DNA of 63,959 bases, filler included, from Craspedostauros australis (lineage: Eukaryota): the NCBI GenBank assembly GCA_030167865.1. It is 8 parts of 8 records of this genome, joined end to end, with 100 filler letters (N's around TTAATTAATTAA, not from the genome) between each part and the next. Parts side by side here need not be neighbours in the genome. Positions count along the whole stretch, not along the records: positions 1 to 19,630 come from JALAGF010000034.1; 7 more parts are not named here. One strand, 5' to 3'. The number at the start of each line of letters is the position of its first letter. Position 1 is the stretch's first letter. The position numbers were made by a program, and so were the translations under genes. The notes under the pieces are model-generated. The model did not search any database and had not been told where the DNA came from. It saw only the letters and a list, made by a program, of their open reading frames with translations. Positions 1,023-47,272 of the stretch are shown here, piece by piece.

Positions 1023-3698
1023 TCATAGCAAATGGGATACTGTTGGTCGAGATCGGTCCAGGCCACTGCTTGGTGCACCAGTCGCGGACAGGCGCTCGGC
1101 CCTATGCGATCGCATTGCGATGGCGTGTGGCTCTTGATTTCCTCCACCTAGGCGATTTCCTTGGCCGGCGAATGCACGGGCATTGGATAGCGAAGGATTC
1201 AGCCGGGCGCTTGACGTCCCAGCTTGCATGCATCGCGCCACATGGCACGATGGATCCAAAACGGGGACTTTCATCACGGACCTGAATAGGTCAGCGGCGT
1301 TCGCCTGTGAAGATGCAGATTGGGTCTGTCTCGTAGCCAGCCAATGGGAGACGGCGCAGAGCGCAACCAGCTTACAACTCAGGGACAGTGAATGCAGGGC
1401 CCAGAATAGGGCAGGCCTGGACCATATGCCGGTGAGCTGGTAGATTGTGCCGTAATACAGACAATCTGCCATTATGACGACGACTGCAACAACGCAATAG
1501 CCTCTGGCGATGGTGGCCGATTGGATCTCCTGCAGTGTTGAAGTGTTGAAGAAGGGATTGCAGCACCCATTGTGCTGGTTTGTTCCCATCTGGCGGTGCT
1601 TGAGGAGAATGAGGGCGAGCATGAAGGTTGAAAGCGAATTGGAAACGACGAGGCCGCTCGAAGCAAAGCCGTCAAAGAGCACCACTATCACGGCGAGGGC
1701 TACGAGGTGGAGACGCTGCGCCCATTGCAGCAGCTGCCAATCTCCATCGTTGTGTCTCGCTTGATCTGACCATGGATTTGATGTCGAAGATTCGTTCCAG
1801 CCAGCGCATTCCGCGTCTGTGCTGAAAGTCTGTGCCGCGTTTTGAAGGCGGAGAATCACTTTGCCGAAGAGCCAAATGAGAGGGAAGGTGACGGCGGGGT
1901 TCGCCCATTCCAACGGCAGTAGTCCCCAATGGATTGCAAACCCCAGAACAATTCCAGCTAGATGGCCGAAGAAGGATACCCGTGGCAGGATGACCTGCAG
2001 GACCACAAGCTGCACAATGGGACCGAGGTTAAATCGCATCCCGAATATCTCCATGGTCTCAAAGCACAGCTGTGGCAGAAAGAAGATCGGGCACGATGCA
2101 TGCGGACTGGATAGAGTCGCGACCACCATCCATGCGAAAAGAACACCTGAGAACCCAACAGTGTTCGGCATGTCCTGCTGCGATGGGAACACTTGGCAGA
2201 TGGCGCGGCGCATCGCCGTTCCATCTCTGCACAAGGCAGAAACCGTGGATATGAGCTGCGATGTTGCATGGTGCCATCCTGCCTGGTGCTGTTGCAGAAG
2301 CATCCGTGCGGCGCCCGAGAGCAATAGCATGATGACGGTCGTGAGAGGAATGAGAGCCGTGGTGTACATGAAGAATGGCAACGATCCCAAGTGCGGTTCC
2401 AGCTGCAGCCCCAGCGACCACCAGCTCATCATGTTGAATCCGATATGCCACAGATCAAAGTGGGCAAGACAACCTGAGAAGGCTCGACCGTACTCGCGGT
2501 ATATCGATCCATTGATTGCAACCAAGGCTGGCGAAACCCGTGAGTTCCAATACATCAAGTAAAGTCCGACGTTGAGCAACCAGAAGAAGGTGGTTGTCGG
2601 GTGGTGCCATGCCTGCGCCGCAATTCCTCCTCGAACATGCGACGTTTTGTATCCGTGCATGCCGGGCACTGCGTAGAAGTCTTCGTGGGATGAATGCTGC
2701 CATGGTCCGGCAAACCATGATTCAGCTGGTGACGATATCGAGACAAACACTTTCGATGGCGGCATCCGCATTGGTTGCATCAGTGTTGTTGCCGCTGCCG
2801 CTGCCGTTGCCATATGCAACGGCGCCTCATCGTTGTTTGCGTTTATGCTCGTGTTCTTCATCGTGTCCTCGGGAGGGACGAGGAGGTACCACCCAGATCG
2901 TGGCGGCGGAATCGGGTTCGATGTCGTGGCGATGGTGGCCGATGAAGCGTAGTGAAGCGACATCGAGTGGGAGACGGCCGTTGCGCTTCCATTCGTTGAT
3001 GTTGCGGGCACCATAATCTGTAATGTCCATGTCAATGCTGCCTCCTCGCCTGAACCGGAACGTTGAGCGCCTGTAGATTGCGGCAAAAGTACCAGCTGAA
3101 AGCCCGGTGGGCTCTGCGGCGCCCTCCACGTAGCATCATTTGTGAGTTTTCTGGTATTGAAGGACCCCAGCCAGCTGATCATGCGCGTGAGCGAGGTGAC
3201 GGAGCATGGAGACAGCGGCGATATGACGCAGGACATGGTCTGCTCGGCCTTCGTTTGGTCATTGCTCGAGCAGCTCGACGCGCTTTCATCGTGGTTCCAG
3301 ACTTGACGCAGGGTCGGCCGTTGCTGCTGCTGCTTTTTATGCTGTTTTCGTTGACGATAAGGCGAATCGTTCTGCACAGCGAGAAAAAGGCCGGAGGCAA
3401 GAGCAGCCACAGAGGCCTGGTCATGCTTGCGGTTCAGAGATCGCAGCATCCCGAATCCTTCTGTGTCGGCATGAATTGGGGCTGGGGATCCATCGTCGCG
3501 GGCCTTTCCAAGTGCGCCGATACTTGCCGTCTGGCGCTCGCCAAGATCGGAACTCGATCTCACGTCCACGATCCAGAATCCATGCTCCAGCTTCCAGCTT
3601 TCGAACACACAACGCCCGATCAACACCGGAGCAACGATTAGCAAGATCAGCGCGCTGCTCACGGATAGGAAAGGCGTCCATTTCCCGCCTCTCCCCAT
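1023..3698 (-). CDS. Rhomboid-family intramembrane serine protease (RHBDL4/RBL-like) with long N-terminal extension and C-terminal SHP box
   Basis: 891-aa single ORF. It has HFDLWHIGFNM (HxxxN), catalytic GFSG (~2145-2156), SFFGHLAG (catalytic His), multiple TM segments and FAGQGNRLGG at 1143-1172. The N-terminal third is low-complexity, so the start and possible introns are less certain. Confidence 0.85.
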   Translation of the reverse strand: MGRGGKWTPFLSVSSALILLIVAPVLIGRCVFESWKLEHGFWIVDVRSSSDLGERQTASIGALGKARDDGSPAPIHADTEGFGMLRSLNRKHDQASVAALASGLFLAVQNDSPYRQRKQHKKQQQQRPTLRQVWNHDESASSCSSNDQTKAEQTMSCVISPLSPCSVTSLTRMISWLGSFNTRKLTNDATWRAPQSPPGFQLVLLPQSTGAQRSGSGEEAALTWTLQIMVPATSTNGSATAVSHSMSLHYASSATIATTSNPIPPPRSGWYLLVPPEDTMKNTSINANNDEAPLHMATAAAAATTLMQPMRMPPSKVFVSISSPAESWFAGPWQHSSHEDFYAVPGMHGYKTSHVRGGIAAQAWHHPTTTFFWLLNVGLYLMYWNSRVSPALVAINGSIYREYGRAFSGCLAHFDLWHIGFNMMSWWSLGLQLEPHLGSLPFFMYTTALIPLTTVIMLLLSGAARMLLQQHQAGWHHATSQLISTVSALCRDGTAMRRAICQVFPSQQDMPNTVGFSGVLFAWMVVATLSSPHASCPIFFLPQLCFETMEIFGMRFNLGPIVQLVVLQVILPRVSFFGHLAGIVLGFAIHWGLLPLEWANPAVTFPLIWLFGKVILRLQNAAQTFSTDAECAGWNESSTSNPWSDQARHNDGDWQLLQWAQRLHLVALAVIVVLFDGFASSGLVVSNSLSTFMLALILLKHRQMGTNQHNGCCNPFFNTSTLQEIQSATIARGYCVVAVVVIMADCLYYGTIYQLTGIWSRPALFWALHSLSLSCKLVALCAVSHWLATRQTQSASSQANAADLFRSVMKVPVLDPSCHVARCMQAGTSSARLNPSLSNARAFAGQGNRLGGGNQEPHAIAMRSHRAERLSATGAPSSGLDRSRPTVSHLL

Positions 3699-4383
3699 TG
3701 CAGTGTATGGTGCTGTTGAAGCCGTTGCTTTTGTTGGGACGGCCGCGTATTATGGTACGAGTCCAAGAACGTGGCTGCGTCATCTCGTGTGCGAGTCCGG
3801 GCGCCGTGAACGGTCTGTGGCCGCATGTGCACGACCACGGCGATCCCGTCGCATGTGTGGTGCCGCAGCTCGTGGACGTTGATCACGATTGTGCCTCCGT
3901 CTCGTGTTCGCGGTTTGTTGTGTTGCGCTTCCCCAATCCTTTTGCCCGAACTCCCACGCGAAAAATGCGCTCGGTTGATGCGACCCGCGTAATCGTAGAC
4001 TGCGGAACGAACAAAGAGGTTTCCAGACAGGACACAAGCCCTTCTGGGATCCACCGCAGCGTATCAGCAAGGTATTCTACATCCGATCGCGTGTGTGAGG
4101 ACTCTGATCAAACAAGCGTCGTAGAGAACATAAAAGAGACGGTTTTGCTGGTTGGTTGGATGGTCAGTTGTTATGATTGATTGTTCCAAAGAATGCTTGG
4201 GGGAGAGAGAGAGCATTACGGGCTATGTGAAGACACCGGGAAGCATGGTACTCCGTGGCACATTGCTCTGATCGGTGTCCTGTCATACTTGCAGATCCGC
4301 TTCTCTGCCTTGCTACTCTGTGCTGCAATCGTGATCATGCATTCTGCTGGTGCGGACGCTCCACGCAGTGCCGATTCTGACGT

Positions 4384-7300
4384 TTAGAAGTAGGCATCGA
4401 CGGAGGCGACGCCAGTGGTGCGACGGATCTTGAGAGCAAGTTCGGTTGGGATGGTTGGTCCGTCCACGGTACTGACGGAACCATCTGTCATGGTGACCTT
4501 GTAGTGCTTCGGAGACTCTCCGTAAATGTTCTTGGCACCCGGGTTGTGGTAGATGACCAAGATCTTTGCGAAGAGCTTGAAGGACACGACGTGGCTGCCA
4601 TCCTCATCCAAGGTCGGGTCGTTGTCGCTGGTCTCGTCCTCGAACAGCCACGATGGGAGGGCTGGGACGAGCTGCATCTCCACGTTGCCCTCGTCGTTCA
4701 CGAAGAAGGGGGTTGGGCCGATGAACATGTGCTTCCACATGCTCATGAATTCGGCGGTGGACCCAGACAGGCGGGCGAGGAAGCCACGGCCATGGAGTTC
4801 AGGATCTGGGAATGCAGAGGACGCGATGAAGGAAGAACACTCCATCAGTGGACGACCGTACACTTCTGGTTCCATGAAAGGCAGAATGCCGCCTCCCTTC
4901 ATCTCAGAGAAGAATTGTTCGTACAGCTTACCACGGATGAGCTGCAGGTAGTACTTGTAAGACATGTGCATCCAGATGGACTGGTTCTCCAACCAACCTG
5001 GCGCGAACGCGATCTGGCGTCCCATGTCGTATGTCTGGCCGGTGAGGCTGGCAGAAAGGAAGTACATCTTGAGCTCGGTGTCGCGAAGTCCTGAGTTCAG
5101 CACGCGCTCGTAGGTGTCCATCATCTTGGACTGGTCATCCTGGATTGTCTTCATGTAACGAACAGGCCCTTCAAGGAAGAGCGGGAAGATGCCGACAGTC
5201 ATTGCCTTGGGGTCGACGAGCGGAAGACCGATGTCGGTATGATCGCCATTCTCTTCGTAGTCAGTAACATCGTAGGAGAAGTATGCAGGTGGGATGCCGG
5301 ATGTGCCGTCGTCCCCGAAACCTTCGGTTCCGAACTTCATGGCGCGCTTCATTCCAGCTTCGACTTCGTCGATCCAGCGATCGAGGATGTTGGAGACCTT
5401 CTTGGCGGTGTAAGTCTGCGTTGTGCCGGAGAAGTACATGTTGGTGTCGGCTCTGTACTGTTCGCGAGCAGTGGCGACGGTGTCCCAGTATGTGAAGAGT
5501 TGGGCTGGCACTTCGCGAGGGAGGCTCTTGGGCTCCTGGTAGCCGAAGGCCTTCAATTCGTCCAAGGCGGATTCCACCTTGAGGATCATATCGTGGAGTT
5601 CGCTTGGGATGACGACGTCGCGATCGTACTTGTCGACCACCTTCTTCACGTACTTCATGAGCAGGTAGAGCTCGTGGGTTTCTGGCATTCCGGAGCCGAC
5701 CATTCCTGGGAGACCGTTCATGCTGTCCAACCAGCCAGGGCGTCCACCTTCGTACTCAATTCCCATTCCCCAGGCATCACGCATGGCGAACTTGACGGAA
5801 GAGAGAAGGAAGAGCTTGGCGATTGGGGAGCTCATGAACGGGTCGTTGTTGTTGTCACGCTGCCAGCTGGCCTCGATTCCAAGCAAGCCATTTCTCTTGT
5901 TGCGGAATGCTCCCTGCTCTTCGAGCTTGCCCATGTCGAAGAATGTGGAATCCAGCTGGATGACGTGCTTGGACTGACCGTCGAAGGTCAGGTCGAGGAC
6001 GTACTTTTGGGAGCGCGGGCGGACAGTGGCCGTGGAGAAGAAGTATCGCAACTTCTGATCGTACATCAGAGCCTCTTCGCCATCTGGGAAGATGGCCAGG
6101 TAGGCCTCGATCAGGTCCACGTAGTAATCCCAGTGATCGGCCCAGTATCCAGTGCCATACACGCCCATGGCACGGTCCTCGGCGGCTGCCAGGATGGGCT
6201 GGACGAAAGCATCATTGTCCTCGACGCGGTTCACACCGATCTGGTCGCACAGCTGGAAGAGCTGTCCTGGACGGAAGGGTCCACCAGTGATGATATCACC
6301 CAGAATCTGTGCGCTTTTGGCGTCTGTTGTCACCTCTGCAGCGATCTCCCTTGCCTTGCCTTCGTCGGGCATCATGTAGACGACGGCCTCGACAGTCAGT
6401 GGCTCGTATCCATCGGCTTGGATGAATGAGAGGAACATCTGCACGTCAAACGAACCCATGCGCGGCAAGAAGGCCACATCATCTCGACGGTTTTGTGCTA
6501 CATCACGGTAGTTTCCAGGTCCCTGTGTGTGCAATGTTTGTGTAATATTGGTGCGTGTATGGTACAAGGTGCGTGGCGATGGCGATGGCAATGGTGGTGG
6601 TTGGGGGGTATTGCGTGTTCAAATAGTGAGTCAAGATGAGCATATGATGGTGAGAAGAGCAGAGCCATGCGGCTAAGCATGCATACTGGTATTGTATCCC
6701 TGAAGAGTCATCATTGTACCGAATCATTTCCCCACACGGGTGCAACACGGGCACATGTTGGTGTGCAAATACCATATGCGTGGTGACATACTCACCTGGG
6801 AGAAGTATGATGGCATGATGTGGAAAGCGTTGTAGTCACGTTCGAGGTCACCGTGGATGCGGGAGAAGGAATGGAAGATCTTGGTGGTGGTGTCTTCATC
6901 GTAAGTGGTGTCACCGTCGATGTTGCCGACGACAGTTGGGAGTCCCCCGCGCAACGAGTTGTCGAGGAACATCTGCTTGACCGCACCGTTGAACAACGGG
7001 TTGACGGTGTTGGTCTCCACACCGGCGGTCAGTTCGTCGGCAAGGGAACGAGCGCGAGCGAACTTGTCGGTAACGAAATTTGGCTTGGTCACGATGCTCT
7101 TGATGGTCTTCAGCTCGTCCATGTCAGCCGCCTTGCCGTAGATTGAGGCGATGGTGATGCTGTCTCCGGGGGCGACGGTGATGCTGCGAACGGCGGCGAA
7201 TGCAGACGACGTCTTGGCGTCACCGTATTGTGGTTCGTCCAGGATCTTGCCGACGCTGCTGGCAGAGAGTCCCTTTGGCATTTCCAAGGAGGTGTCATGG

Positions 7301-8981
7301 CCGAACACCTTATTGGTATCGTACACGATTGGCAAGAGGGTTGAGGCCTTGTCCGGGGTTTCGAGGAAGGAGAGGCAGTAGTGACCGTGTTCTTCGATCT
7401 TCACCTTCGCCGCGTCGGATGGTTCGGTGGACATCTTGTAGAATGGCATGGTCAGCGACTTGGGGTCGACCTGGTAAACTCCGAACCAACCTTCCAAAGT
7501 GCGGCCCATGCTCTTGAGCATGCCCTCCAACGGTCCGCCGGCTGGTTCGATCTTGGCGAGACCATCAAGGACGGACAGTTCCAGCGGCGTGCTTCCGATG
7601 TTTTGGATCTTTGTGCGACGGACGAGGGATCCGAAGTCCTCCTCGGGCAGGATGATGTACTGGACGGATGTCGAGACTCCGTTGACGCCATCGATTTCCT
7701 GGATCTCCATCTCGTTGGTGCCAACGTAGAGGACGCGCTTTGGCTTGGAGGGGTCATCCTCGGGATCGTCCAAGTTGCGGGAACGACGAGGTGAGAACGG
7801 TTCAACGTCGAAGCTGGTGCTTTCTGCGGCGGAGAGCGCGGAGTCGTTGTCCTCAGCGACACGCGTTCCACGGATGAAGGAGCGGAAGCCGATGAATGGT
7901 GTAAGTTGGTAGGCCTTGTTGGCTGGGTTGAATTCCAGCAAGGGGAAGTCCTTGGATTCTGTTCCGAAGGTGGAGATTCCTTGTCCGCGGTTGACGTAGA
8001 ACGCCCACACCGGCTTGCCGAAGAATCCGGCGACACCCGGCAGGAAGGATGAGAAGGTGGATCGAGCATCGTAATCCTCCATGACGAAGCGATCTGCGTA
8101 TCATCAATCATCGGGCATCCATGCACGTGTATATGCGTATGCGTATGCGCAATGCATGCGAGCAGCATGAGAGAACAGGGTTGCGAGAAGATCGCGTATG
8201 GCCATGTTGCAAAGAGCAAGCAAGTTGACGGTATGTGTGTATGTGTGTGAGTGAGAGACTTCGATGCATGGCGACCAACAAGTGGAGCAAACAACATCAT
8301 AAAAATGGAGGCGGGACGAGCGAAGTGGGAAAGTTCAACGAAAAGATCGAGACCCAGTTCGAAGGAATTCGTCGGAGCCAAAATTCTGAAAGCGCAGAGA
8401 AGGATCTTTGCTGTCCGCCATTGACCGAGCAGTCCGCATCAATCTTCTCCCGCTTCCGCTCTCTCGCCACAACTCCGGAAGTTGTGCACTCGATCCGCAA
8501 TTAGTCTGCCTACGCGCTGAACATTTGATCCTCGTTTGGTCTGCGATCGCTGCTGCATATTGCTGTTCTTTGTTTGGCACTTACTGGTACTGTCGAACAG
8601 CTTGAGCTTTCCGGTCTTCGACATTGGGAGATCGGAATCGGCGATGGCAGCCGCCTGAGCTGCGCTGTCGGCGGTTGGGGTAGTAGACTTCGGGGCGCTG
8701 GAGTTGGTGCCGCTGTTGCCCTCGTCGCAGTTTCTGAACTGGTAGAACCCAACGACGCCGGCGACGATGGCAAGGAGGACAATGGCGGCGACAATCTTCT
8801 TGTTGCGCCTTCCGCTGCCGTAGCGCACGGATCCATCGATGGAGGCGTACTCTCCACCGCCGTTGCCATCCTGGTAGGTGCCTTCTTCGGACTTGCCGTT
8901 GGTCTTGTCGTCACCAGCAGTGGCGCCGTAGCTGCCACTGGTGGTCACGGGTTGGTTGTCCAATGCATCGGCGGAAATCAT
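4384..8981 (-). CDS. GH161-like beta-1,3-glucan (laminarin) phosphorylase, ~1277 aa, with N-terminal TM anchor; exons 8981-8585, 8093-6796, 6522-4384
   Basis: GT-AG introns (8584-8094 and 6795-6523) join three ORFs in frame: ...FDST-N-RFVMEDYDARSTFSSFLPG... and ...YFSQ|GPGNYRDVAQNRR. Motifs WAFYVNRGQ, RIHGDLERDYN, YWADHWDY, GWLDSMNGLPG, GWLENQSIWMHMSYKY and GRGFLARLSGSTAEF are those I recognise from the GH161/GH94-like phosphorylase group. Confidence 0.85.
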
Positions 8982-9967
8982 CGTGGCCGATTCTTTGTCG
9001 TTGCCTCTTGTTGTGTCTTTTCCGTGACGAATGCGGATGTTGAGAATCAACGTTTATGATACCTTGTGTTGTTCCTGTAGGTCTGCGTAGCTCGTGCACC
9101 ATGAACACGACCACAAGAATCTGCATCGCCGGGCTTCGTGAAAGGCACAGGGGATCTGGTGGCCACGGAGAGAAAGGAATTTGCGTGGCTTCGGTTCTGT
9201 TTGCGCGCGACGCCTCCTACCATGCGCTCTCCCCTCTGACCGTACCACAAGTACGGTGCGTGCCGTAGCTCGTACACGCATACCATTTCGTACTGATACA
9301 CGCCGAGATGACATTCCTTCTCCCACTGTTTCCACTTTGATTCCATCACCGCCGACGTCGTCGACGACGATCAAGGAAGGAGAAAGATCCGTTGCATTCC
9401 CGCTCCCTCCCCTTGGAAGGTTGTTGACGAACTGTTGGTTTGTTTGTTGGTTGGTGTCTGAGCGTTTGGATCTGGATAGAGTTCGCATTTGGCAGGTTGT
9501 GCTCCTCCGTCTGCTGCATCTGTTGGTTCCGCAGCTGGGTGAAAGATTCGCTCACTCATGCTGCATTTTAATTGGGTGGAGAAGTGAAGAGAACGCATTC
9601 CGTGGAAGCATATGTGTGGGTTGGCGAAACCATTCGCTTGTTCCAGTTGGCGAACGGCATGTTACGGACAATAGTTGTCCGTGAACAAAAATGCAAAGAT
9701 CAGAGAAAGAAGAAAGACACCATCAACGAATACGTCGACCCGAAGGACTGCTTTTCTTGGCGGAAACAAATGATGACGTGGGCAAACCGCCGCAAACGCG
9801 AATCGCAGTCGTATGCCGCAACACGGCGCATTGCGTGGATGGAGGCACATCTCTTGTTTGGGTTGTCAACACCAAATCCCAAGAGAAGGAGAGGCACGAA
9901 GAGAGCAGTTCATCGAGGCTGACACAAACCAAGGAACAACACTCCCCACCAAACAAAAGATCCGGCC

Positions 9968-11072
9968 ATGATGTTTGGCTCTTCCGCTGCCTTCGTGAGC
10001 AAGCTCGCGAGGGCCTCAACCTCTGCCTCTGCCTCCTCCGCTCTGAAATCCGGATCCAACCTGGCGCTCCGCTCGTTCGCCTCCGTGGGAGACGCCGTGC
10101 CCTCCGTCGAGCTGCACCAAGGATTCCCTCCGAAGAAGCACAACCTCGCCGACTTCGCGAAGAACAAGTCGGTGGTGCTGCTTGGATTGCCAGGGGCCTT
10201 CACACCCACCTGATCCACAAAGCAAATCCCCAACTACCTGGAGAATCAAGACGCTCTCCGCAAGGCTGGGGTTGACGCTGTCATTGTGTACAGCGTCAAC
10301 GACGCTGCCGTCATGCAAGCATGGGCCAAGGACCAGAAGACTGGCCTGGTGAGTTCCCAATCACCCCCTTGAATGGCAAGGTGGAGATACTTTTGCAAGT
10401 GAGATGAATGTAGATTGCGACGGATGGCGTTCTCGCGGGGCTGTAGGGCCGCGTGTGCATGTGTATGCATGTGCAAGTGCATGTGCATGTGCAAATGTAT
10501 ACGCAGGCGAGCCTGTGACAGCGCATCTAGGTCACCAACTTCGTGTGCCATGCAACGCTCCTTCTTGTCTCATACTTGAACCATCTTCGTTACTTTGTGC
10601 ATATGTACTCTACTCTGCCGTATTTCCACGCGTCTTCAAACTATTATATAATACATATGATGTGGCATGCTCCACAACACATGGCGTCATATTGACATCC
10701 ATGCGGTCGCACTAACTCTTCCGCTCTTCTCCACTCAATCATTGTGTAATTTGCTGACCAATGGTATGTATCGGTATGCATGGGTGGGCACCATGCGTCC
10801 ATTATTATTGGCATGGGGCATCACAGAGCATGGTGCAACTGATGGGTGATCCAGCAGGTGACCTGACCAAGGCCCTGGACATGGAAATGACCCATCCAGG
10901 TCCCATGGAGAAGGGACTCTACGGCCGATGCAAGCGCAGCGCCGTCTACGCCGTGAATGGAACCATCAAGGCCGTCCACATCTCCGAAGGGCCGGATGAT
11001 CCTGCTGGCGACGGCGATCCGTCGCACACACTTGCCGAAGCCATGCTCAAGGCAATTGAAGAATCCAAGTAG
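9968..11072 (+). CDS. Type-II (PRDX5/AHP1-like) peroxiredoxin, predicted selenoprotein (UGA=Sec at codon 82, 10211-10213), 208 aa; exons 9968-10348, 10827-11072
   Basis: GLPGAFTPT-TGA-STKQIPNY..., with the Prx frame continuing after TGA (VYSVNDAAVMQAWAKDQ). A gtgagt...cag intron leads to LMGDPAGDLTKALDM...GRCKRSAVYAVNG. The Ser/Ala/Arg-rich N-terminus ending LRSF/AS resembles a mitochondrial presequence. Confidence 0.92.
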
Positions 11073-11306
11073 GCCTCAGTAGGCGCAGCAGAAGATGACG
11101 CATCGAATGGTGCGTCGTGATGTGGATTTTCTACCACGACGTGCACATGAACCATCGTTTGCTGAAGACTTTTGGGTCGTTGTCTGTCCGAATGATCAGC
11201 CCTGAGCATATTCGTACACAATAACCGACAGACTGACTGTCCAACTAACATTGGGGAAAAGCTGCTTGTGGGAAAATCATGCCAAAGATTGCTGTTGGTG
11301 GTGGTG

Positions 11307-11418
11307 GTCGAATCATTGCTGTCGGGATGACGGTCCATTCCGTTTGTACGCGCGTTACGTACGTAACGCCGGCGTGCAAAGGTGGACCTGACGAAACCAT
11401 TGCATTCGCAGGTTCGGC
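11307..11418 (+). promoter_or_regulatory. Candidate SECIS element in peroxiredoxin 3' UTR
   Basis: ATGAC (11327-11331) and TGAC (11389-11392) form the non-Watson-Crick quartet around stem GGTCCATT/GGTGGACC. The stem extends with TTTGTACGC/GCGTGCAAA and an 18-nt palindrome (11352-11369). Outer helix GTCGAATC (11307-11314)/GGTTCGGC (11411-11418). Confidence 0.7.
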
Positions 11419-11840
11419 TCAAGTTGCGCATCCCATGTTCCATCGACTTTCTGGAGAGAGGGTCCTGGAACGGAATGGAATGAAATGACAACGGATGTGA
11501 TCCATTATACATACAATTGCTCGCTGCGTCTTGGCGAGGGATCATATACAAAATCCAGAGCTGCGACGGCAATGCACAGACCATCACCAAAAGTATCCTT
11601 GGCTGATAACACACAATGCACAACGACCAGCTCCCAGCACATTCATCGATAACTTAGCAAAAAAGAACGATCATGATTACTCTGCTCGACTCCAAAATAT
11701 GCTGAGCACATGCGGGGCTTGTACTTGTACGAGTAGAGCACAGCACATTGAGTAACGTGCTCTTTCTATTACTCCATGTTACCATACTCTACTGATAGCC
11801 CGCGGCGGAGCATTGGTCGGCGTCCATTGCTCGAAACGCA

Positions 11841-14108
11841 TCAGTGTGTGTGTTGAGATGTTCTTCGTTGGCTGTATGTGTCCCGGGTTCCACGTAACAG
11901 CAACCAGCTTGTTCCGAAACAGGATACCGACAGCACAGCAATGATGACATGGGTCAACGCAAAGCACTCTAGCCCGTGACATGTATTTTGTTCGCCACCA
12001 TCGCCGTCCTGCTCATCACCGCCGTCAATGTGGGCCTCGTAGACCCTCTGCGCCACGATCTTGGACAGCAGCACCGTTCCGGCTGCCGATGTCACGCCAT
12101 CGTAGAACATGTAGTTGGCAGCAACGTGCGCCTTGCCGAACACTTCACCCACGATGAGGACCAGCAACGGCCACACCATGCCAAACCCGTATCCGCTCAA
12201 GGCTGTGCCAAGCACGAAGGCGACCTCGGACCGTGCGAACGCGAGGATGACATGCGCGACCAAGGCAACGACGCTCGCAACCATCATGAAGAAGGGTCTC
12301 GGCACGCCCCAGTTCAGCGCAGCCTCGGAAAGCGCGCCGGTTGTTACACGTCCAGCCGATTGCGCCACTGAGAAAATGGCGAGGGCCGATGGTGCAACGA
12401 TCTTGGGAAAACCTGCGGATTCCACCATCTTGTCCATGTTGTTCGTCTCCACCGTGCCTGCGCCGACGAGGATGACAGCCGTCCACAGCATGAACCATGC
12501 AGGCTTCGTCATGAGCATTTGCACCAGATTCGAATTTGGTTCATTTCCGTCGTCGTCGTTGTTGCTGTCGCTAGCGTTGCCATTGCCGCTGCCCGCATGA
12601 CCGTTGCTATCTGTGCCTCTGCGTATCTGTGCAGCGGCATCGTCGTCGTCATCATCATCACGATGACTGATGTTGCCGAAGTCGATTCTGGGATGATCAT
12701 CGATGTCGAGTTCATCGGGATGTGGTTGTGCACCATTCAGTGGATTCTGGGAATCCTTTCCTTGCAGCAATGTTGTTGCATCGAATTCATCTTCAAATGT
12801 TGAGTCTATTGTGCTGTTCATGCCACCAGTTTGACTTGCACTCTTTGTCGCACTCTCGCTGGTAACTCCAGCGTTGCGCGCGTCTCCGGACTCTTGCAGA
12901 CACGTCAATTGTTGCTGTTCAGACTCATCCAGCAACGCATCCTGTTCGGCATCACCCTCGCTGCTGTTGTTGCTATTCGATTCCGCTCGATGCCTTGCCT
13001 GCGGCAGGAATACAAGCGAGGCGATCGGGAGGATCCAAACCATAACGATGAAACCAGCCAAGACAAAGTTTTGCGTGTCTTCCTGGTCGTCTTCGTTGCT
13101 CCACGTGCCCTCCACATCCAGCAATCTCCACCGGTGCGTTCCGTGCTGCTTGTCTTCATTCTCCTTCCGTCTCTCCTCGTACAGCGTGATGATGGAGGTC
13201 CCCAGCACGATGGTGGCGAGCATGATGAGCGACGCATAGAGAACTCGCAGATGCAATCTCGATGCCACATCCTTCCGTGCTGTGAAGGACGATGGTGCAA
13301 GTGCAACGTGGCCGCTCTGCAGGCTCTGCTTCTCGTGCGGCGGCAGAAACAGCAGGCTGGGAATGGTCGCCACGACTATGAAGAGCGTGGCTGCCATTGG
13401 GATGAAGTCGAGATCTGACGAGCCTGGGCTTCGGATGGCCTCGAAAAGACATGCGTAGACGCCCGAGCCCAAGCCGACGTATCCTTTGGCGATGCCGACA
13501 GCGTCACCCTTCGTGCCAGGTCCACAGGATTGCACGACGATCTTGAACACGGCACCTGTGACAAGCGCGCATCCCAGGAAAGTCGCAACTCCCAGCGCAG
13601 ACAGCGCCGCGACGATGAGCTGCTTTTCATCCTGGGCGATGAACATCCCCTTGGCGGAGATGGCGTAGAAGCACATGAGGGCGGCTGCACCGAAGACACC
13701 GCCCACACTTATGCCGAATCGCGTTCCGAAGCGATCCACCAACAGGCCAGGGGCCCAGCTGAGCAGGCCAGCGCAGAAGATCGCCGTGGAGATCGTGTCC
13801 AGCTGTCCTTCGCTGAGGTCCAGCTTCTTCTTCAGCTCGTTGCCGTAGAGGCCGAATGCGTACAGCGTCCCGCCCGTCGTGATGGAAGCAAGGAATGCGC
13901 AGCACAGAAGCGGTATGTTGGTGTGAGAGAGTGGCAATGTTTCTGGACGATGCTCCTGATCCTGTTCCTGTTCCTGTTCGTGCTCGTGCTGGTGTGAATC
14001 ATCCTCCCATTCATCAGTCTCGTCCATTCCCAATTGCGGCGTGGCATCGTTTCCCAATTCGCTCTGCTCTTGGTGGTGCCCGTCGATGCCTTCATCAGGT
14101 TCAGCCAT
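11841..14108 (-). CDS. MFS transporter, nodulin-like/NFD4 (Mch1-like) family
   Basis: 755-aa ORF. Motifs GGTLYAFGLYG, PGLLVDRFG, AVGIAKGYVGLGSG, GRVTTGALSE, EVFGKAHVAANY and CHGLECF. Two TM bundles are separated by an acidic low-complexity loop. Confidence 0.9.
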   Translation of the reverse strand: MAEPDEGIDGHHQEQSELGNDATPQLGMDETDEWEDDSHQHEHEQEQEQDQEHRPETLPLSHTNIPLLCCAFLASITTGGTLYAFGLYGNELKKKLDLSEGQLDTISTAIFCAGLLSWAPGLLVDRFGTRFGISVGGVFGAAALMCFYAISAKGMFIAQDEKQLIVAALSALGVATFLGCALVTGAVFKIVVQSCGPGTKGDAVGIAKGYVGLGSGVYACLFEAIRSPGSSDLDFIPMAATLFIVVATIPSLLFLPPHEKQSLQSGHVALAPSSFTARKDVASRLHLRVLYASLIMLATIVLGTSIITLYEERRKENEDKQHGTHRWRLLDVEGTWSNEDDQEDTQNFVLAGFIVMVWILPIASLVFLPQARHRAESNSNNSSEGDAEQDALLDESEQQQLTCLQESGDARNAGVTSESATKSASQTGGMNSTIDSTFEDEFDATTLLQGKDSQNPLNGAQPHPDELDIDDHPRIDFGNISHRDDDDDDDAAAQIRRGTDSNGHAGSGNGNASDSNNDDDGNEPNSNLVQMLMTKPAWFMLWTAVILVGAGTVETNNMDKMVESAGFPKIVAPSALAIFSVAQSAGRVTTGALSEAALNWGVPRPFFMMVASVVALVAHVILAFARSEVAFVLGTALSGYGFGMVWPLLVLIVGEVFGKAHVAANYMFYDGVTSAAGTVLLSKIVAQRVYEAHIDGGDEQDGDGGEQNTCHGLECFALTHVIIAVLSVSCFGTSWLLLRGTRDTYSQRRTSQHTH

Positions 14109-16294
14109 TTTGTAGCTATTGACTCGAGCACTCTACTTCAATCTATTATAGAATAGCATACTCTGTTGTCGAGTTTACTTTATTTGGAGTATAATCGTCT
14201 GTTATCGTTGCCGACGGAGTGTGGAGCATGGAGTATGGAGCCTGGAGCATGGATTGTTCATGCACGGACAGCTTTTGTTGATGATTGAGGCCATCAAAAT
14301 CGTGGTTGTTGCCGTGCATCATTGCCGATGGTCTTGGTTGTCGTTGGTCGTGTTTTGTCACGTGTCAGAAGCAGTTTTGATCCTGTTTTCTGGAATGACC
14401 GTCCATGCGGTCCGATGAGTCATGATGCTGTTTGGGTCATACGGATCGTAAGTCACCTTTCTCGTGTCCGTACAAAGTACAGACGTGTCATGATCTGTTC
14501 AACAACACAACACCACCACGCAAGCGAAAAGAAGAAAAGAGAGAGAAACACACAAAGAGGTTCGTAATTCATCCTCCACCAATCAGATCTGGAGTGCGAC
14601 GGTTCCACAGCGTCCACACAACGAATTGCTTCCGTCTCTTCGGTGGCGAAGGTGACGTGTGGTCCGTCTGTCCTGTTGTCCAGTTGTCGTTGACATTCGG
14701 AAAAACCGTTTGTTCTTGGGTGTCGGGTCATGAGTTGCACGTACTATCGGCATCGGTATTCAGATGATTGATCGGTGGTCCTTGCACCACGACTGGCAAT
14801 ACCACTATGAAGTTGAAGTTGGTGGCAAATTTCTGGAACAGTCGGAGAAATGCGAGGAGAGGAAAAAGTGGTGATGTGGTTGTTGCAGTCCTTGTAGCAT
14901 CGTTCTTGTCAGTGTGTGTCCCACAATACAACACAAAGTGGATGATGATTGACTCGATTGCTGACTTGTCACTGTGCGATGGCATGGGGACACTTATTGA
15001 TAGCTCTGACGTGGCTCTTGACTTTCAATTTCACTATCCTCCTGGCAACGACGAAATCCGAACCTTCCGTGTCGACCACTTTCATTATGAACCATTGGGA
15101 ACTAGGATACCGTATTACGTCTGTTGCATGTCTCATTCAAGGAGAAGCATCAGTACTATACAGCACAAACAGACGTGGCGATCTCTTTCATTAAGCGGAA
15201 AACGACAAATTTTGAAGAAGCGCTACGGTTGAAGAGACTTTTCGGTGACTGTGAGCTCCGCACGAAACGAGACCACTTCTTGTGTGCATGAGTCGTCTTG
15301 TACTTATAGTACGAGGTCCAGCGACAGGTACGAGAAGCTAAGAGCCTTTACCTACCTATGGTCTGGAGTTTCAGGTAGTCCAAGACCGCAGTCTAAGTGT
15401 GCTGGTGCGCATTTTGTTGTCTGCACACGCAAAAGGTCCACACAGGTACGAGTATTCCTTTCCTGTAGTCCAACCGTAGCAAACTCGCTCCGCGTCACTG
15501 TTTGGGCAGGGAGGAAGACAGGGAGGAAAACACGGTCATCACCAAGGAGCGAGTCGTGTGTTGATGTTTTCTCACGGTGGGATCGCGTGTCGATGGGCAT
15601 GGTTGGCTTCGCGCATTGGGGACCTTGCAGACAACCGCATCGGAGTGGAAACACCATCGAGGCCGCAGCGAAGACAAGAGCAGACAGGCAGAGACAACAA
15701 GGGACAACGACACATCGATCCCTTGACTCTCAGTGGCTACGTACGAGCACCCTGCGACACATGCCCGCTCACCTGACAACACCAGAAGCGATCACTGCAG
15801 CAGTAACAGCGAAACAGCAAAGAAGAATACTTCAGACTCTCTCTCTCTCTCTCTTCCTCCAGAGAGCCGAACATTCGCAAATACCATCCACGTGCGTGTA
15901 GAGTATACCCACAGACCACAAACGCACAGAGAGAGTTGTAGTCGACGCAACTCTCCATTACGAAAAACGTAGCCACATCGACGAAGCTTCGACGGACCTC
16001 CTTCTGTGCTTCGACTCGTGTGAAAGTCGATTGCGTTCAAGCTGCCTCAACGGCATCTCCTCGTACACCTGCCATAACATAACATACCAATACCGTACCA
16101 TACCACACCACAGCATCAATTGGCTCCAGCAACGCTCCTGCCCGCCACAGTAATCGCAGTTGCCTCAGCAAACTACGAGTGGGCCAGGCAAAGCAGATCA
16201 TCAACGACGAACGGAATACCAACAACATCATTGTCATCGCCGTCGCCACCAGCGTTGTCACAACCCGAGGATCAATACCAGCAACGGCACCGCT

Positions 16295-22700: not shown

Positions 22701-23003
22701 AAACACAAAGAGAGAAGGAGGAGACCATGCGAACAAGACAACAACATACACACCACCCAACCCCATACTCAACCGCGTGAACAACAGACATCGAATTGCC
22801 ACTCATATTCATCACACAGCGTATTGTACTCATACTCATACTAATACAAGCTGTTGCATACACAAACATCGATATCTCTTCCATAGGCAGCTCCGACCAC
22901 AGACATCTTCGACAGCCAATCCAACGTATATCGTCCAACGTCCAACGCTAATCGTCCAACGTCTATCGTCCAGCAACCATTGACCATCCACCACACTCTC
23001 AAA

Positions 23004-24980
23004 ATGCCGAGTGTTACCAACCAACAACTCATTGATGCTGCCTCTGCAGGTGACTTGTCAGTGTTGAAGGAATGGAAGAAGCAGAGCAAGACGCAGAATG
23101 AAGGAGATGGTGTCAACTGCAAAATCTACGATATGTGGACTCCCCTTCATCTGGCATGCCTCTTCGGCCACCTGGAGTGTGTCAAGTACCTCATCGAATC
23201 ATGTGAGGCGGACATCAACTGCAAAGACAACCGTGGTCGCACTCCCCTTCATGATGCATGCAACAAGGGCCACCTGGAGTGTGTCAAGTACCTCATCGAA
23301 TCATGTGAGGCGGACATCAACTGCAAAGACAACAATGGTTGCACTCCCCTTCATGATGCATGCTACAACGGCCAGCTGGAGTGTGTCAAGTACCTCATCG
23401 AATCATGTCAGGCGAACATCAACTGCAAAGACAGTGGTGGTTGGAATCCCCTTCATCAGGCATGCTCCAACGGCCACCTGGAGTGTGTCAAGTACCTCAT
23501 CGAATCATGTGAGGCGGACATCAGCTGCAAAGACATCTCTGGTGACACTCCCCTTCATCGGGCATGCTCCAACGGCTACCTGGAGTGTGTTGCGTACCTC
23601 GTTGCATCAGCCAATGCCGATACCGATATTCAAAACATCAACAACAAAACCCCCCTCAATTTGATCGATGCAACACTTCAAATCAAGATGCTAAAACGTC
23701 TCACACATCTGAGTCGCTGCAACTCACAACTGCAGGAGGAGAACGAACACCTGGAACAGCAGCTGAAACGTGAGAAGGAAGAGAAGACACAGAAGGAGCA
23801 AGAGAATGAACAACTGGAACAGCAGTTGGAACAGAAGGAGCAAGAGAAGACACAGAAGGAGCAAGAGAATGAACAACTGAAACAACAGTTGGAACGGAAG
23901 GAGCAAGAGAATGAACAACTGAAACAGCAGTTGGGACGAGAGGAGCAAGAGAAGAAGCAGAAGGAGGAAGAGAATGAACAACTGAAACAACAGTTGGAAC
24001 AGAAGGAGCAAGAGAAGACCCAGAAGGAGCAGGAGAACGAACAATTGAAACAGCAGTTGGAACAACAGTTGAAACAGGAGAAGGAAGAAATGCATCGCTT
24101 GCTCTCGAAAAGTCAACAGGAGAACGAACAACTGAAACGGAAGTTGAAACAACATCTCAAGATCAGCATCGACCAAGATCGCCATGCTGCTTTTCGTACC
24201 GAGGCCATCGCAGACGTTTCCTTTCTGTGCGGACAAGGGGACGAACAACAATCAATCAAGGCAAACTCCACAGTCCTCATGATCACTGTCCCATCCATTC
24301 AGACACTGATCAACTCTGGAATCCAACATCAATGCGCTCACGATGGTGCCCATGATGGCGCTCAAGATACAACTGAACCCATCCAAACAACCGTCCCTCT
24401 TCCCAACTTTCAACCAAAACACGTCCGATACGTCCTCCAATGCATCTACAGAGGTGAGATATCCTTCAACAACAACACTCATGACTACGCTGGCGATGAT
24501 GACGCAAACCAGCCAACTCCCATCCTCAATGGACAGGATGATCTGCAACAGCTGATCCTTGTGGCCAACGAATTCGGCTTCTGGCGACTCAAGCTTGTTC
24601 TTGAAGCAGAGTTGGCCCGCAAGCATCTCACAGAAGACACCATGATAGATGTGTTGATATTCGCTCATCAACACAACTGTGTGGTGTTGAAAGATGCAGC
24701 AATGAGAATGGTTGGTGAAAGTGAGAAAGATATGTTCACTCATCCAGATTTCGGCAAGTTGGTTCCACAGCCCCAACTGATGAGAGACATTCATGTCCTC
24801 CGCAGTGGGGGAGCGGAGAGTGATGGTATTGATGACGAGTACAGCCACATGTCCATGGTGGAGCTGTACAAGGTTACGGATCAGGATGAGGGTACAGCAC
24901 AAGTGGATTCGTACATGGATCGGGTGGCATTGGTGGACCTCGTCCGTTCCATGAGAACCAGCTCCACGAGAACCAATTGA
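23004..24980 (+). CDS. Ankyrin-repeat / Glu-Gln-Lys coiled-coil / BTB-POZ(+BACK-like) protein, intronless
   Basis: Five TPLHxAC..GHLECVKYL ankyrin units, then EQENEQLKQQLE repeats. ADVSFLCG...IKANSTVL...VLQCIYRGEI...LILVANEFGFWRLKLVLEAEL...LIFAHQHNCVVLKDAAM is a BTB plus helical extension. ATG at 23004. Confidence 0.9.
   Translation: MPSVTNQQLIDAASAGDLSVLKEWKKQSKTQNEGDGVNCKIYDMWTPLHLACLFGHLECVKYLIESCEADINCKDNRGRTPLHDACNKGHLECVKYLIESCEADINCKDNNGCTPLHDACYNGQLECVKYLIESCQANINCKDSGGWNPLHQACSNGHLECVKYLIESCEADISCKDISGDTPLHRACSNGYLECVAYLVASANADTDIQNINNKTPLNLIDATLQIKMLKRLTHLSRCNSQLQEENEHLEQQLKREKEEKTQKEQENEQLEQQLEQKEQEKTQKEQENEQLKQQLERKEQENEQLKQQLGREEQEKKQKEEENEQLKQQLEQKEQEKTQKEQENEQLKQQLEQQLKQEKEEMHRLLSKSQQENEQLKRKLKQHLKISIDQDRHAAFRTEAIADVSFLCGQGDEQQSIKANSTVLMITVPSIQTLINSGIQHQCAHDGAHDGAQDTTEPIQTTVPLPNFQPKHVRYVLQCIYRGEISFNNNTHDYAGDDDANQPTPILNGQDDLQQLILVANEFGFWRLKLVLEAELARKHLTEDTMIDVLIFAHQHNCVVLKDAAMRMVGESEKDMFTHPDFGKLVPQPQLMRDIHVLRSGGAESDGIDDEYSHMSMVELYKVTDQDEGTAQVDSYMDRVALVDLVRSMRTSSTRTN
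23139..23600 (+). repeat. 102-bp coding tandem repeat (ankyrin units), ~4.5 copies
   Basis: a(c/a)tccccttcat recurs at 23139, 23241, 23343, 23445 and 23547 with near-identical framework sequence. Confidence 0.95.
23735..24150 (+). repeat. Coding minisatellite (gagaaYgaacaactgaaacagcagttg / cagaaggagcaagag modules) encoding the coiled coil
   Basis: Repeated 21-nt-multiple modules translate to QKEQENEQLKQQLE heptads. Confidence 0.9.
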
Positions 24981-45280: not shown

Positions 45281-47272
45281 CTACGAACGTGGATGCTGCC
45301 GTCTCTGTGACATGGCCTCTTCGGTCGATGCCAGCTCATTTAAGAGCTGCGCATACCAATGTTCAATTTGCTGGTCTATGGGTAGTGCAGCCGTGGCAGG
45401 AACAGGGATATGAGCGTGGGCATGAGCATGTGCAGAAGCCGACGCAACTGGCATGCCCATCGGTCTCGACGAAAAGGTCGACCTTGTCGCTGATCCTGGC
45501 GCCGGCGACCGTGCCATGTCCGGGTACGATGGCGATACAACAACACCCATGGCACGTTGAACAAGATCTGCGATTCTTGATGAATTGGACCTTTCTGTTC
45601 CAGATGGTGCCGCCGGTGGGTGTGCCAAATCCTCCATCTGCGATGTCAACGACGCCATGGATCGTAACGGGGGTAATGGGGGCAACGCCGAGGCTGCGGT
45701 TGCGGGTGCTGACATCGAATGGAGCCTAAATGGACCAAACCCGGCATCTGCGTCGCGCGACAACTGGTCGACTCCGTGTATCGTAGTATCCCGGTGAGGC
45801 AGCATTTCTGCGAGAAGCCTCGAAATGATAGGATCGTTGCGGAGCATCGTGCTGCTTCTATCGTTTTGAATTTGCCGGAGTATCTGAAGTGTTTGGGCTT
45901 GTTCGGCTCGCATTTGCGAGTCCTGTTGGGCTGTCATAATACCTTGTAGTAGATGGAGCCTCTGCCGTGAATCTCGTGTTGCTGAAGATGCTGAGACTGG
46001 CATGAGTGTCGAAGGTGTCATCTGTGCCTGGCGTTGACCGTACAGCTCACCAGGCGTCGGAGCAGCGGAAGGAAGAGGTTGGCTTGATGTTGTTGAGCTT
46101 GAACCCGTTGCTACCGCGTGCATCGACGTTGGCATTGGCATTGGCATCGGCGCTGATGCTGACGCTGGTATGGCAGCCTGATGTTCCTGAAGCTGATGCC
46201 GAAGATACGAGATGATGCTGGACCTTGACGAGAACATGGTTGCTGATGCGGGCGTCACTCTCTGTGGTTCTGTGGGAGCTGGTGCCGATATGTTCGCGGA
46301 AGCATTGCTATGGTGCGAAGGTATGGCGAATCGCGCAGATGTTGACGACGACATGGCCGACGTTGCTGCCATCTCCGCGACCGCTCTTGACAAGTACTCC
46401 CCGGAGGTGGATGGATCGGATGATACGTAGGTCGTCTGCGGGGCGACAGGTCTCCTTGTGGCTGCGTTATGCACTGGAATTGCAATGGCAGTCGCCCCGT
46501 CGGATGCAACAGCTGTGGGAAAAGCAACGTTCAGCTCACCCCCGGCCATCGCCAATCCCGCAAACGCTGTAGATTGGTGTTGGTGGTGCCCTGGCTGATC
46601 CTGTTGCTTGATGAAGTGCCGGAAGGCTTGCTTGGTCTTTTGGACCAAGGTTGGATCGTCTTCGATGATGAGGTAGAGCTCATGCGCCCTAGCAACATCG
46701 GACATGGAGTCTGGGATCTCGTGGGGATCAAGCTTCCGCAGAAAGCGGGCATTGCGGTCGTGCAGCTCCCGGATCACATCCCTTGCAATTCGGATCTTGT
46801 CACCTCTGATTTGAGAGTCAGTGTATTCCGCCTGTGCATCACGCACTAACGACCTGAAGAGGACATTCCCACCATGGAGACTTGGGCCAGTGCCCCTGCC
46901 CAGGAGAACATCATTTTGCTTGACGTGGGTGGTGATCTTCCTGCTGCCCACCGTGAACACATTCCTGTCGACGTCTGGCGAGCTTTGTCGACGTCGATCG
47001 TCAGGCGTGTCACCTGCACCAGATACATCGTCTGTCTCTGATACGTCGGACTCAAGGGGTGCACTGGATGCATTTGCAGCATCGGTGCTTTGCATAGCGC
47101 TGTCGCACGGTGCCGTGCTTCGTCGCCGCGCTGTGTCGCCTCTTGCTTTGCTGATGCTCGTGCTCGCACTTGTTCGAGTACTCGTGCTCGCACTTGCGGA
47201 ATGCCCGTATCGTCCTTTTATGAGAGTTCGATGTCCGTGCGCTTTCCTGACTTGCAACCTCGTAGCAGCCAT
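45281..47272 (-). CDS. DUF6824-domain protein with long Ser/Ala/Pro/Gln-rich disordered tail
   Basis: NDVLLGRGTGPSLHGGNVLFRSLV...Y...KIRIARDVI...ARFLRK...KTKQAFRH is a canonical DUF6824 pattern. 663-aa ORF. Confidence 0.85.
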   Translation of the reverse strand: MAATRLQVRKAHGHRTLIKGRYGHSASASTSTRTSASTSISKARGDTARRRSTAPCDSAMQSTDAANASSAPLESDVSETDDVSGAGDTPDDRRRQSSPDVDRNVFTVGSRKITTHVKQNDVLLGRGTGPSLHGGNVLFRSLVRDAQAEYTDSQIRGDKIRIARDVIRELHDRNARFLRKLDPHEIPDSMSDVARAHELYLIIEDDPTLVQKTKQAFRHFIKQQDQPGHHQHQSTAFAGLAMAGGELNVAFPTAVASDGATAIAIPVHNAATRRPVAPQTTYVSSDPSTSGEYLSRAVAEMAATSAMSSSTSARFAIPSHHSNASANISAPAPTEPQRVTPASATMFSSRSSIISYLRHQLQEHQAAIPASASAPMPMPMPTSMHAVATGSSSTTSSQPLPSAAPTPGELYGQRQAQMTPSTLMPVSASSATRDSRQRLHLLQGIMTAQQDSQMRAEQAQTLQILRQIQNDRSSTMLRNDPIISRLLAEMLPHRDTTIHGVDQLSRDADAGFGPFRLHSMSAPATAASALPPLPPLRSMASLTSQMEDLAHPPAAPSGTERSNSSRIADLVQRAMGVVVSPSYPDMARSPAPGSATRSTFSSRPMGMPVASASAHAHAHAHIPVPATAALPIDQQIEHWYAQLLNELASTEEAMSQRRQHPRS

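Follow-up and report, generated by a model that had tools for sequence, protein, structure and literature searches.

Lobanov et al. (2007) list, in Table 2 and supplement 2 of their paper, a selenocysteine (Sec)-containing ‘Peroxiredoxin’ in Thalassiosira pseudonana (two genes), Ostreococcus tauri and O. lucimarinus (PMC2375036), and the Sec peroxiredoxins given in those parts carry GLPGAFTPT-U, RCK(R) and an acidic C-terminal loop. Jiang et al. (2020) count PRX as one of the most widely distributed selenoproteins of algae (PMC7539508), and both papers identify diatoms as Sec users. Within a 63,959-nt stretch of Craspedostauros australis DNA (the whole stretch analysed, hereafter the window), we found a gene that very probably encodes a Prx5-class peroxiredoxin (Prx) with selenocysteine as its peroxidatic residue, the UGA being decoded via a 3′UTR (3′ untranslated region) hairpin. 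Since the Sec-Prx family has already been published for diatoms and Ostreococcus, this protein adds a member to a family that was known before.

The gene lies on the plus strand and opens with an ATG at 9968–9970. Exon 1 (9968–10348; codons 1–127) encodes the Redoxin domain with P75-x-x-x-T79-x-x-U82, and exon 2 (10827–11072; codons 128–208 and a TAG stop at 11070–11072) encodes R-C162-K-R164, which includes the catalytic Arg column, followed by the acidic C-terminal loop of the family. Between them lies a phase-0 GT–AG intron of 478 nt (10349–10826), the position of which is common to relatives. In a translation of the window, the spliced frame of 208 codons has one internal stop, the in-frame TGA of codon 82 (10211–10213), which follows GLPGAFTPT at the peroxidatic residue and which we read as selenocysteine 82. 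A first-pass annotation of this DNA had placed the TGA at the Cys of a PGAFTPxCS motif and had described an intact, codon-biased Prx sequence continuing past it through a clean intron to a normal stop. Both points are borne out, the former by the PxxxTxx-UGA arrangement and the latter by the intron, the TAG and the third-position GC content, which is 0.79 5′ of the TGA, 0.71 in the rest of exon 1 and 0.67 in exon 2, compared with 0.36–0.58 in the three frames of the intron and 0.47–0.53 in the three frames of the 3′UTR. With the TGA entered as C, the exon 1 product matches Pfam Redoxin (PF08534) across the TGA (residues 40–123, E = 1.4e-18, above cut-off); exon 2 alone has no Pfam match, yet it can be aligned to the Prx family.

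The splice junction and the common intron position are supported by 18 other proteins that contain KDQKxGL: 11 of them go on with SM, SL or SK, as the window’s exon 2 does, and in the remaining 7 the GL is followed by V and unrelated sequence, that is, by an intron at the same place. A contig of sequencing run X1 matches positions 10358–11664 without differences and unspliced, its coverage beginning 3′ of the TGA, and no sequencing record spans that codon or the exon joint. We also considered an intron that would excise the TGA; donors and acceptors for one are present, but any such cut deletes conserved active-site residues. The intron contains a short imperfect repeat of CATGTG-like units (10450–10505), which gives chance microRNA matches in Rfam. 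No second Sec-Prx copy (paralogue) was found within the window. Among the neighbours, an MFS transporter gene on the minus strand (11841–14132) converges on the Prx 3′UTR, and upstream of Prx is a large multi-exon gene, also on the minus strand, with two long frames (4384–8100 and 8439–9053) that have no Pfam match. Other genes encode a rhomboid protease (1023–3749, minus strand), an ankyrin-BTB protein (22887–24980, plus strand) and a DUF6824 protein (45281–47272, minus strand), and a minus-strand frame at 56568–58415 has a weak retroelement polymerase SH3-like match. DUF6824 is common in diatoms, and its gene stands among ordinary eukaryotic genes in the window.

A protein search returned 257 relatives, the best 120 of which were used to tally the catalytic column after GAFTPx. 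This column holds Cys in 49 and Trp in 39 of the 120; the chain ends at the motif in 25 (the window’s own truncated product included), another letter is found in 4 (one of them a pattern mis-hit) and the motif is missing from 3. Comparison with PRDX5 homologues, a check that the first-pass annotation had suggested, places the UGA in the column of the human PRDX5 Cys. One relative on a long branch (P0044) has Ser there. The nearest named relatives of the window’s protein, in the protein search and on a quick tree, are raphid pennate diatoms, and the terminal branch of the window’s gene is short (0.15 on that tree).

At the DNA level, metagenomic contigs were scanned with a pattern that admitted nothing but TGA or TGG after the motif, which gave at least 121 loci. 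Of those listed, 118 of 121 have TGA and 3 have TGG. All three TGG loci turned out to be TG|GT introns of 147–206 nt in which the acceptor is followed by A, so that splicing restores TGA and the family sequence resumes. TGA thus occupies the catalytic column, in the genome or after splicing, in 121 of the 121 loci listed by this TGA-or-TGG scan, and a genuine Trp codon followed by Prx sequence was found in none of them; because TGC and TGT lay outside the scan pattern, the scan yields no Sec-to-Cys ratio. The codon after the UGA (10214–10216 in the window) is TCC in 89 of the 118 TGA loci and begins with T in 114, and further downstream in these loci TCC makes up 110 of 462 Ser codons; this bias possibly reflects recoding context, in loci that are related to one another. 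Two Sec-Prx5 copies lie about 4.6 kb apart on one contig (L079 and L080), each with its own SECIS-type hairpin. A prokaryotic scan for the same motif with TGA, using a loose pattern, gave 119 matches (L122–L240), 18 of which are real Prx5 genes; several bacterial Prx5 genes with TGA at this column are in alphaproteobacterial genomes. Viral contigs gave no matches to the motif with TGA.

These comparisons also bear on database annotation. Where a Sec codon is split by an intron, the genome has no visible TGA and gene callers read W. The Sec codon itself is split in this way (TG|GT...AG|A) in L051, L032 and L088. The W-bearing entry P0004 traces to a TGA in L086, and P0087 to the TG|GT intron of L088; many database entries that end in W, or in W and junk, probably come from intron-split Sec codons. 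In the public annotation of Nitzschia inconspicua, the entry P0022 is missing six residues including the catalytic one, and its gene model was apparently drawn around the UGA. The mis-annotation foreseen by the first-pass annotation is borne out among the best 120 relatives by the 25 that end at the motif, the 39 with W and the Nitzschia inconspicua model that skips the codon.

The 3′UTR of the window’s gene contains two plus-strand SECIS candidates. In the better one (11327–11392), ATGAC at 11327–11331 faces TGAC at 11389–11392, and 11332–11339 forms eight contiguous pairs with 11381–11388; above this 8-bp stem, a long continued hairpin stands in place of an apical AA loop. Compared with a canonical SECIS, the element has a UGAN/NGAN core that could form tandem G.A pairs and a helix II above the core, and it lacks the unpaired AA or CC at 10–13 nt: no AA occurs at 9–16 nt, and a CC at 10–11 nt from the ATGA is predicted to be paired. 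The tip of the candidate is a perfect 18-nt palindrome (11352–11369). In the second, weaker candidate (11095–11166), the core is ATGAC...TGAA, only three pairs by the core are contiguous and six of the first ten are paired; its lower helix is 6 bp long, AA is absent at 10–13 nt and the pair probability is 0.01.

A loose pattern applied to both strands of the window (128 kb) found 29 RTGAC hairpins, and 11327–11392 has the lowest energy of these. Two sequence models were also used. R1 was built from 25 AA-type family elements, and R2 was trained on 17 R1 matches (two on the wrong strand, one a second site and none from the window). The candidate at 11327–11392 is the top of 16 R2 matches (E = 0.19), scoring 17.1 bits where the runner-up scores 11.7; it was not reported by R1 at E up to 10, and 11095–11166 was reported by neither model. 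Rfam SECIS gave no match in positions 9500–12000 of the window or in 20 homologous loci, and a strict AA-requiring pattern gave none in the window’s UTR. The fold of 11327–11392 is the minimum-energy structure of 11310–11410 and lies 2.9 kcal/mol above an alternative when 11300–11420 is folded (pair probability of about 0.08). Its pair probability varies from 0.08 to 0.99 with the stretch folded, which is within the range seen in homologues. It sits 254 nt past the stop, beyond all 41 homologous elements (48–247 nt).

These homologous elements come from a survey of the first 400 nt of 57 de-duplicated homologous 3′UTRs, in which an RTGAC...NGAN core had to close a single hairpin; the RTGAC rule was picked after viewing the data, and the controls were run under the same rule. 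Such hairpins were found in 41 of the 57 UTRs, compared with 0–7 in 60 dinucleotide shuffles, 1 of 58 reverse complements and 3 of 58 coding sequences. Elements with no AA within 9–16 nt of the core (AA-less) account for 15 of the 57 UTRs (shuffles: mean 2.4, range 0–6), and an unpaired CC is likewise absent from 14 of these 15. Just 2 of the 15 AA-less loci have an AA-type match elsewhere in the UTR, in a sample in which some contigs end 74–170 nt past the element. The strict AA-requiring pattern matched 29 of 61 UTRs, against 7 reverse complements and 7–15 in shuffles.

Pairs in the 15 AA-less elements were counted by anchoring at the cores, since MAFFT aligned these elements too poorly for pair counts; because the set was chosen for pairing, the resulting percentages are not a test. 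Covariation in helix II of the AA-type set, which is a selected set, exceeds that in 500 of 500 shuffles and in all slid controls. The lower helix is longer than shuffled pairings in both sets (0 and 7 of 1,000). Across related loci of the AA-less kind, the core and the stem next to it rank with the best-conserved stretches of the UTR. R1 recovered held-out sense-strand hairpins in L064, L071, L079 and L080, and it also gave weak matches to 6 of the 15 AA-less elements of homologues. Traced on the quick tree, the AA-less form is clustered yet scattered over several groups (8 changes versus 13.4 in shuffles), and the window’s own clade includes one locus without AA (L036) and one with AA (L076). 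The window’s probable AA-less SECIS is of a form found in roughly one in four of the homologous UTRs surveyed.

In the window’s gene, the in-frame UGA aligns with Cys or Sec of homologues and has conserved sequence on both sides. The conserved catalytic UGA, the Cys-bearing relatives, the SECIS-type hairpins in homologous UTRs and the published orthologues with U make a Sec-type Prx5 the best reading, and they support the Sec-containing PRDX5-type peroxiredoxin proposed by the first-pass annotation. Judged from the sequence, Sec is almost certainly inserted at UGA82 in Craspedostauros australis. After splicing, codon 82 would be decoded by Sec-tRNA via the eukaryotic SBP2/eEFSec route, and recoding would be directed by a 3′UTR hairpin, most likely 11327–11392, in which the kink-turn core and first stem are kept and the apical AA is absent.

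Should the TGA instead be a true stop, the gene would be either a pseudogene or a selenoprotein gene in decay, one that has lost its SECIS AA loop and yields a dead 81-residue product. This is very unlikely. The failure of Rfam and of the strict AA pattern to find a canonical SECIS in the UTR speaks for it, as does an identical 81-residue product recorded from a 1,312-base contig, though the latter is only what a gene caller read; but past the TGA the reading frame, the codon bias and the splice sites all remain intact, the terminal branch is short, the TGA goes back to the family’s ancestor and is not a new lesion, and AA-less elements recur in intact relatives. Even less probable is a reading of UGA as Trp or Cys, whether by an altered genetic code or by leaky readthrough. 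Trp cannot serve as a peroxidatic residue on established chemistry, and against the 39 W-bearing entries among the best 120 relatives stand the 121 listed loci without an in-frame TGG leading into Prx sequence and the explanations found for P0004 and P0087. The T that so often starts the codon after the UGA (114 of 118 loci) provides a context that might favour readthrough. TGA closes 10 of the 17 open frames of at least 300 codons in the window, that of the MFS neighbour (763 codons) among them; as the commonest stop of these long frames, it makes a changed code unlikely. TGG and TGC/TGT are in ordinary use in the window, and no tRNA genes were found within it. An assembly error, with TGC or TGT miscalled as TGA, is extremely improbable: the sequencing contig that matches the window does start 3′ of the TGA codon, but the closest relatives all have TGA at the catalytic column, and a separate database record, which may be of the same strain, shows an identical product that stops at the motif.

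If the protein is a selenoprotein, there is the further matter of which element decodes it. The first-pass annotation had invoked a 3′UTR SECIS without giving its location; a candidate with the core and stem is present at 11327–11392, but it is not canonical in that it has no apical AA. With moderate support, we regard this element as probably the SECIS of the gene, and 11095–11166 as quite unlikely to be so. It is rather unlikely that the gene is decoded by 11095–11166 or by an unrecognised element, with 11327–11392 an unrelated stable hairpin around the 18-nt palindrome. Such an arrangement would fit the start of 11095–11166, which is the commonest in the family (ATGAC-GC), and its 6-bp lower helix, as well as the competing fold of 11327–11392, its distance from the stop, its absence from the R1 matches and the ease with which a loose pattern finds RTGAC hairpins (29 in 128 kb over both strands). 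On the other side, 11095–11166 forms few pairs (family medians are higher for both its three contiguous pairs and its six of ten), its pair probability is 0.01 and neither model reports it, and 11327–11392 leads the 29 hairpins by energy and the 16 matches of R2, in the right UTR and on the right strand.

In the passages on SECIS structure of three papers, apical adenines, or in a few cases cytosines, are described as conserved features (PMC3753652, PMC8704476, PMC3316567), and the review passages count the apical AA as one of two such features and call its role unknown (PMC3316567). A ciliate GPx has one predicted SECIS without adenines (PMC7409322), long SECIS mini-stems are reported from Ostreococcus and Dictyostelium in the parts of Lobanov et al. 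cited above (PMC2375036), and some algal selenoproteins have no detected SECIS (PMC6627142). A recurrent AA-less SECIS class in algae was not reported in the open literature searched, PMC4114682 and PMC10778597 included; Gobler et al. 2013 (PMC3695291) or the supplement of Jiang et al. may describe AA-less algal SECIS elements, so the class is only possibly new. We tentatively propose that diatoms and other marine protists may use a natural SECIS class without apical AA or CC, for which a kink-turn core and a stem of free length would be enough. The element at 11327–11392 would be one of this class, which would have arisen several times in the family, and pattern searches would undercount algal selenoproteomes. 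An AA-less class could explain the algal selenoprotein genes without a detected SECIS (PMC6627142). AA-less elements beside AA-keeping sister genes, such as L036 and the window versus L076 in the same diatom clade, are ready pairs for testing the role of the AA and would show whether algal SBP2/eEFSec can dispense with it. In this respect the hairpin matters more than the protein, the value of which lies in corrected annotation, most family entries being short, W-read or mis-spliced.

The protein was examined through its homologue P0005, which is 80% identical to it over 172 columns. The AlphaFold model of P0005 (pLDDT 86.7) has human PRDX5 as its best match (Foldseek E = 2.2e-16), along with other Prx5-class structures, and a PDB alignment with human PRDX5 puts the UGA column on the peroxidatic Cys and R164 in the human Arg column. 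Through this model, the window’s protein is predicted to adopt the Prx5 fold. Its active-site set consists of P75, T79, U82 and R164, which corresponds to PxxxT/SxxC and the catalytic Arg, and Sec82, held by Pro75, Thr79 and Arg164, would reduce peroxides. The sole Cys is residue 162, a position that Cys occupies in 45 of 61 family members and likewise in relatives of the Cys type. In the alignment, a resolving Cys is absent from the C-terminal column in which insect and bacterial rows have one, which sets the protein apart from atypical 2-Cys enzymes such as human PRDX5. Glutaredoxin (Grx) is fused to Sec-type members at either end, with a Pfam match in 5 of 6 loci tested, one of them below cut-off. 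The loci tested were L042, L044, L055 and L058 (C-terminal) and L010 and L065 (N-terminal). These fusions point to recycling by glutathione (GSH) and Grx. With no Cys at the PRDX5 resolving place, recycling would most likely proceed in this way or through the sole Cys162, and we slightly favour the GSH/Grx route from the sequence comparisons.

The first 38 residues (9968–10081) form an N-terminal extension that ends in LRSFA and is a probable mitochondrial presequence. It contains 4 R/K, 0 D/E and 20 S/A residues, and the N-terminal part has low pLDDT in the homologue model. The RSFA-SVGD junction is common to close homologues, and R-x-F is a presequence cleavage motif. Import of the 208-residue precursor into mitochondria is a prediction that the presequence composition makes plausible and that we consider likely. 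KDEL-like ends are present in 10 of 61 family members, so different members are probably directed to several compartments.

The window’s protein shares its predicted fold, the PxxxTxx motif leading to the catalytic residue, the catalytic Arg column and a probable N-terminal targeting extension with human PRDX5 and the Prx5, or type II, class (PF08534; PDB 1oc3, 1hd2, 2pwj and 1tp9). It differs from human PRDX5 in having Sec for Cys, no C-terminal resolving Cys, a longer acidic C-terminal loop and just one Cys, placed two residues ahead of the catalytic Arg. The hybrid Prx5 of Haemophilus influenzae, a Prx5–glutaredoxin fusion (PDB 1nm3), has the Prx5 domain in common with it, and members of the Sec-Prx family are also Grx-fused, at either end, whereas the window’s protein is unfused. 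With the type I and type II SECIS elements of eukaryotes (UGAN/KGAW core, helix II and apical AA or CC), the candidate at 11327–11392 shares the RUGAC/NGAN core, a stem directly above it, a lower helix and a place in the 3′UTR, but it has no AA at 9–16 nt, and its stem runs into a long hairpin with 57 nt between the core halves (31–86 nt in AA-less family members). The genes of Lobanov et al. were found, by the procedure given in their paper, with SECISearch patterns requiring AA or CC at 10–13 nt, where the window’s candidate has neither, and the models in their supplement begin at the Prx domain, without the probable N-terminal presequence seen here. Their Sec peroxiredoxins, as printed there, have the same GLPGAFTPT-U-S motif, RCKR and C-terminal DDPAGD loop as the window’s protein, and in the first of the two T. 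pseudonana proteins the 16 residues around U are identical to those encoded in the window.
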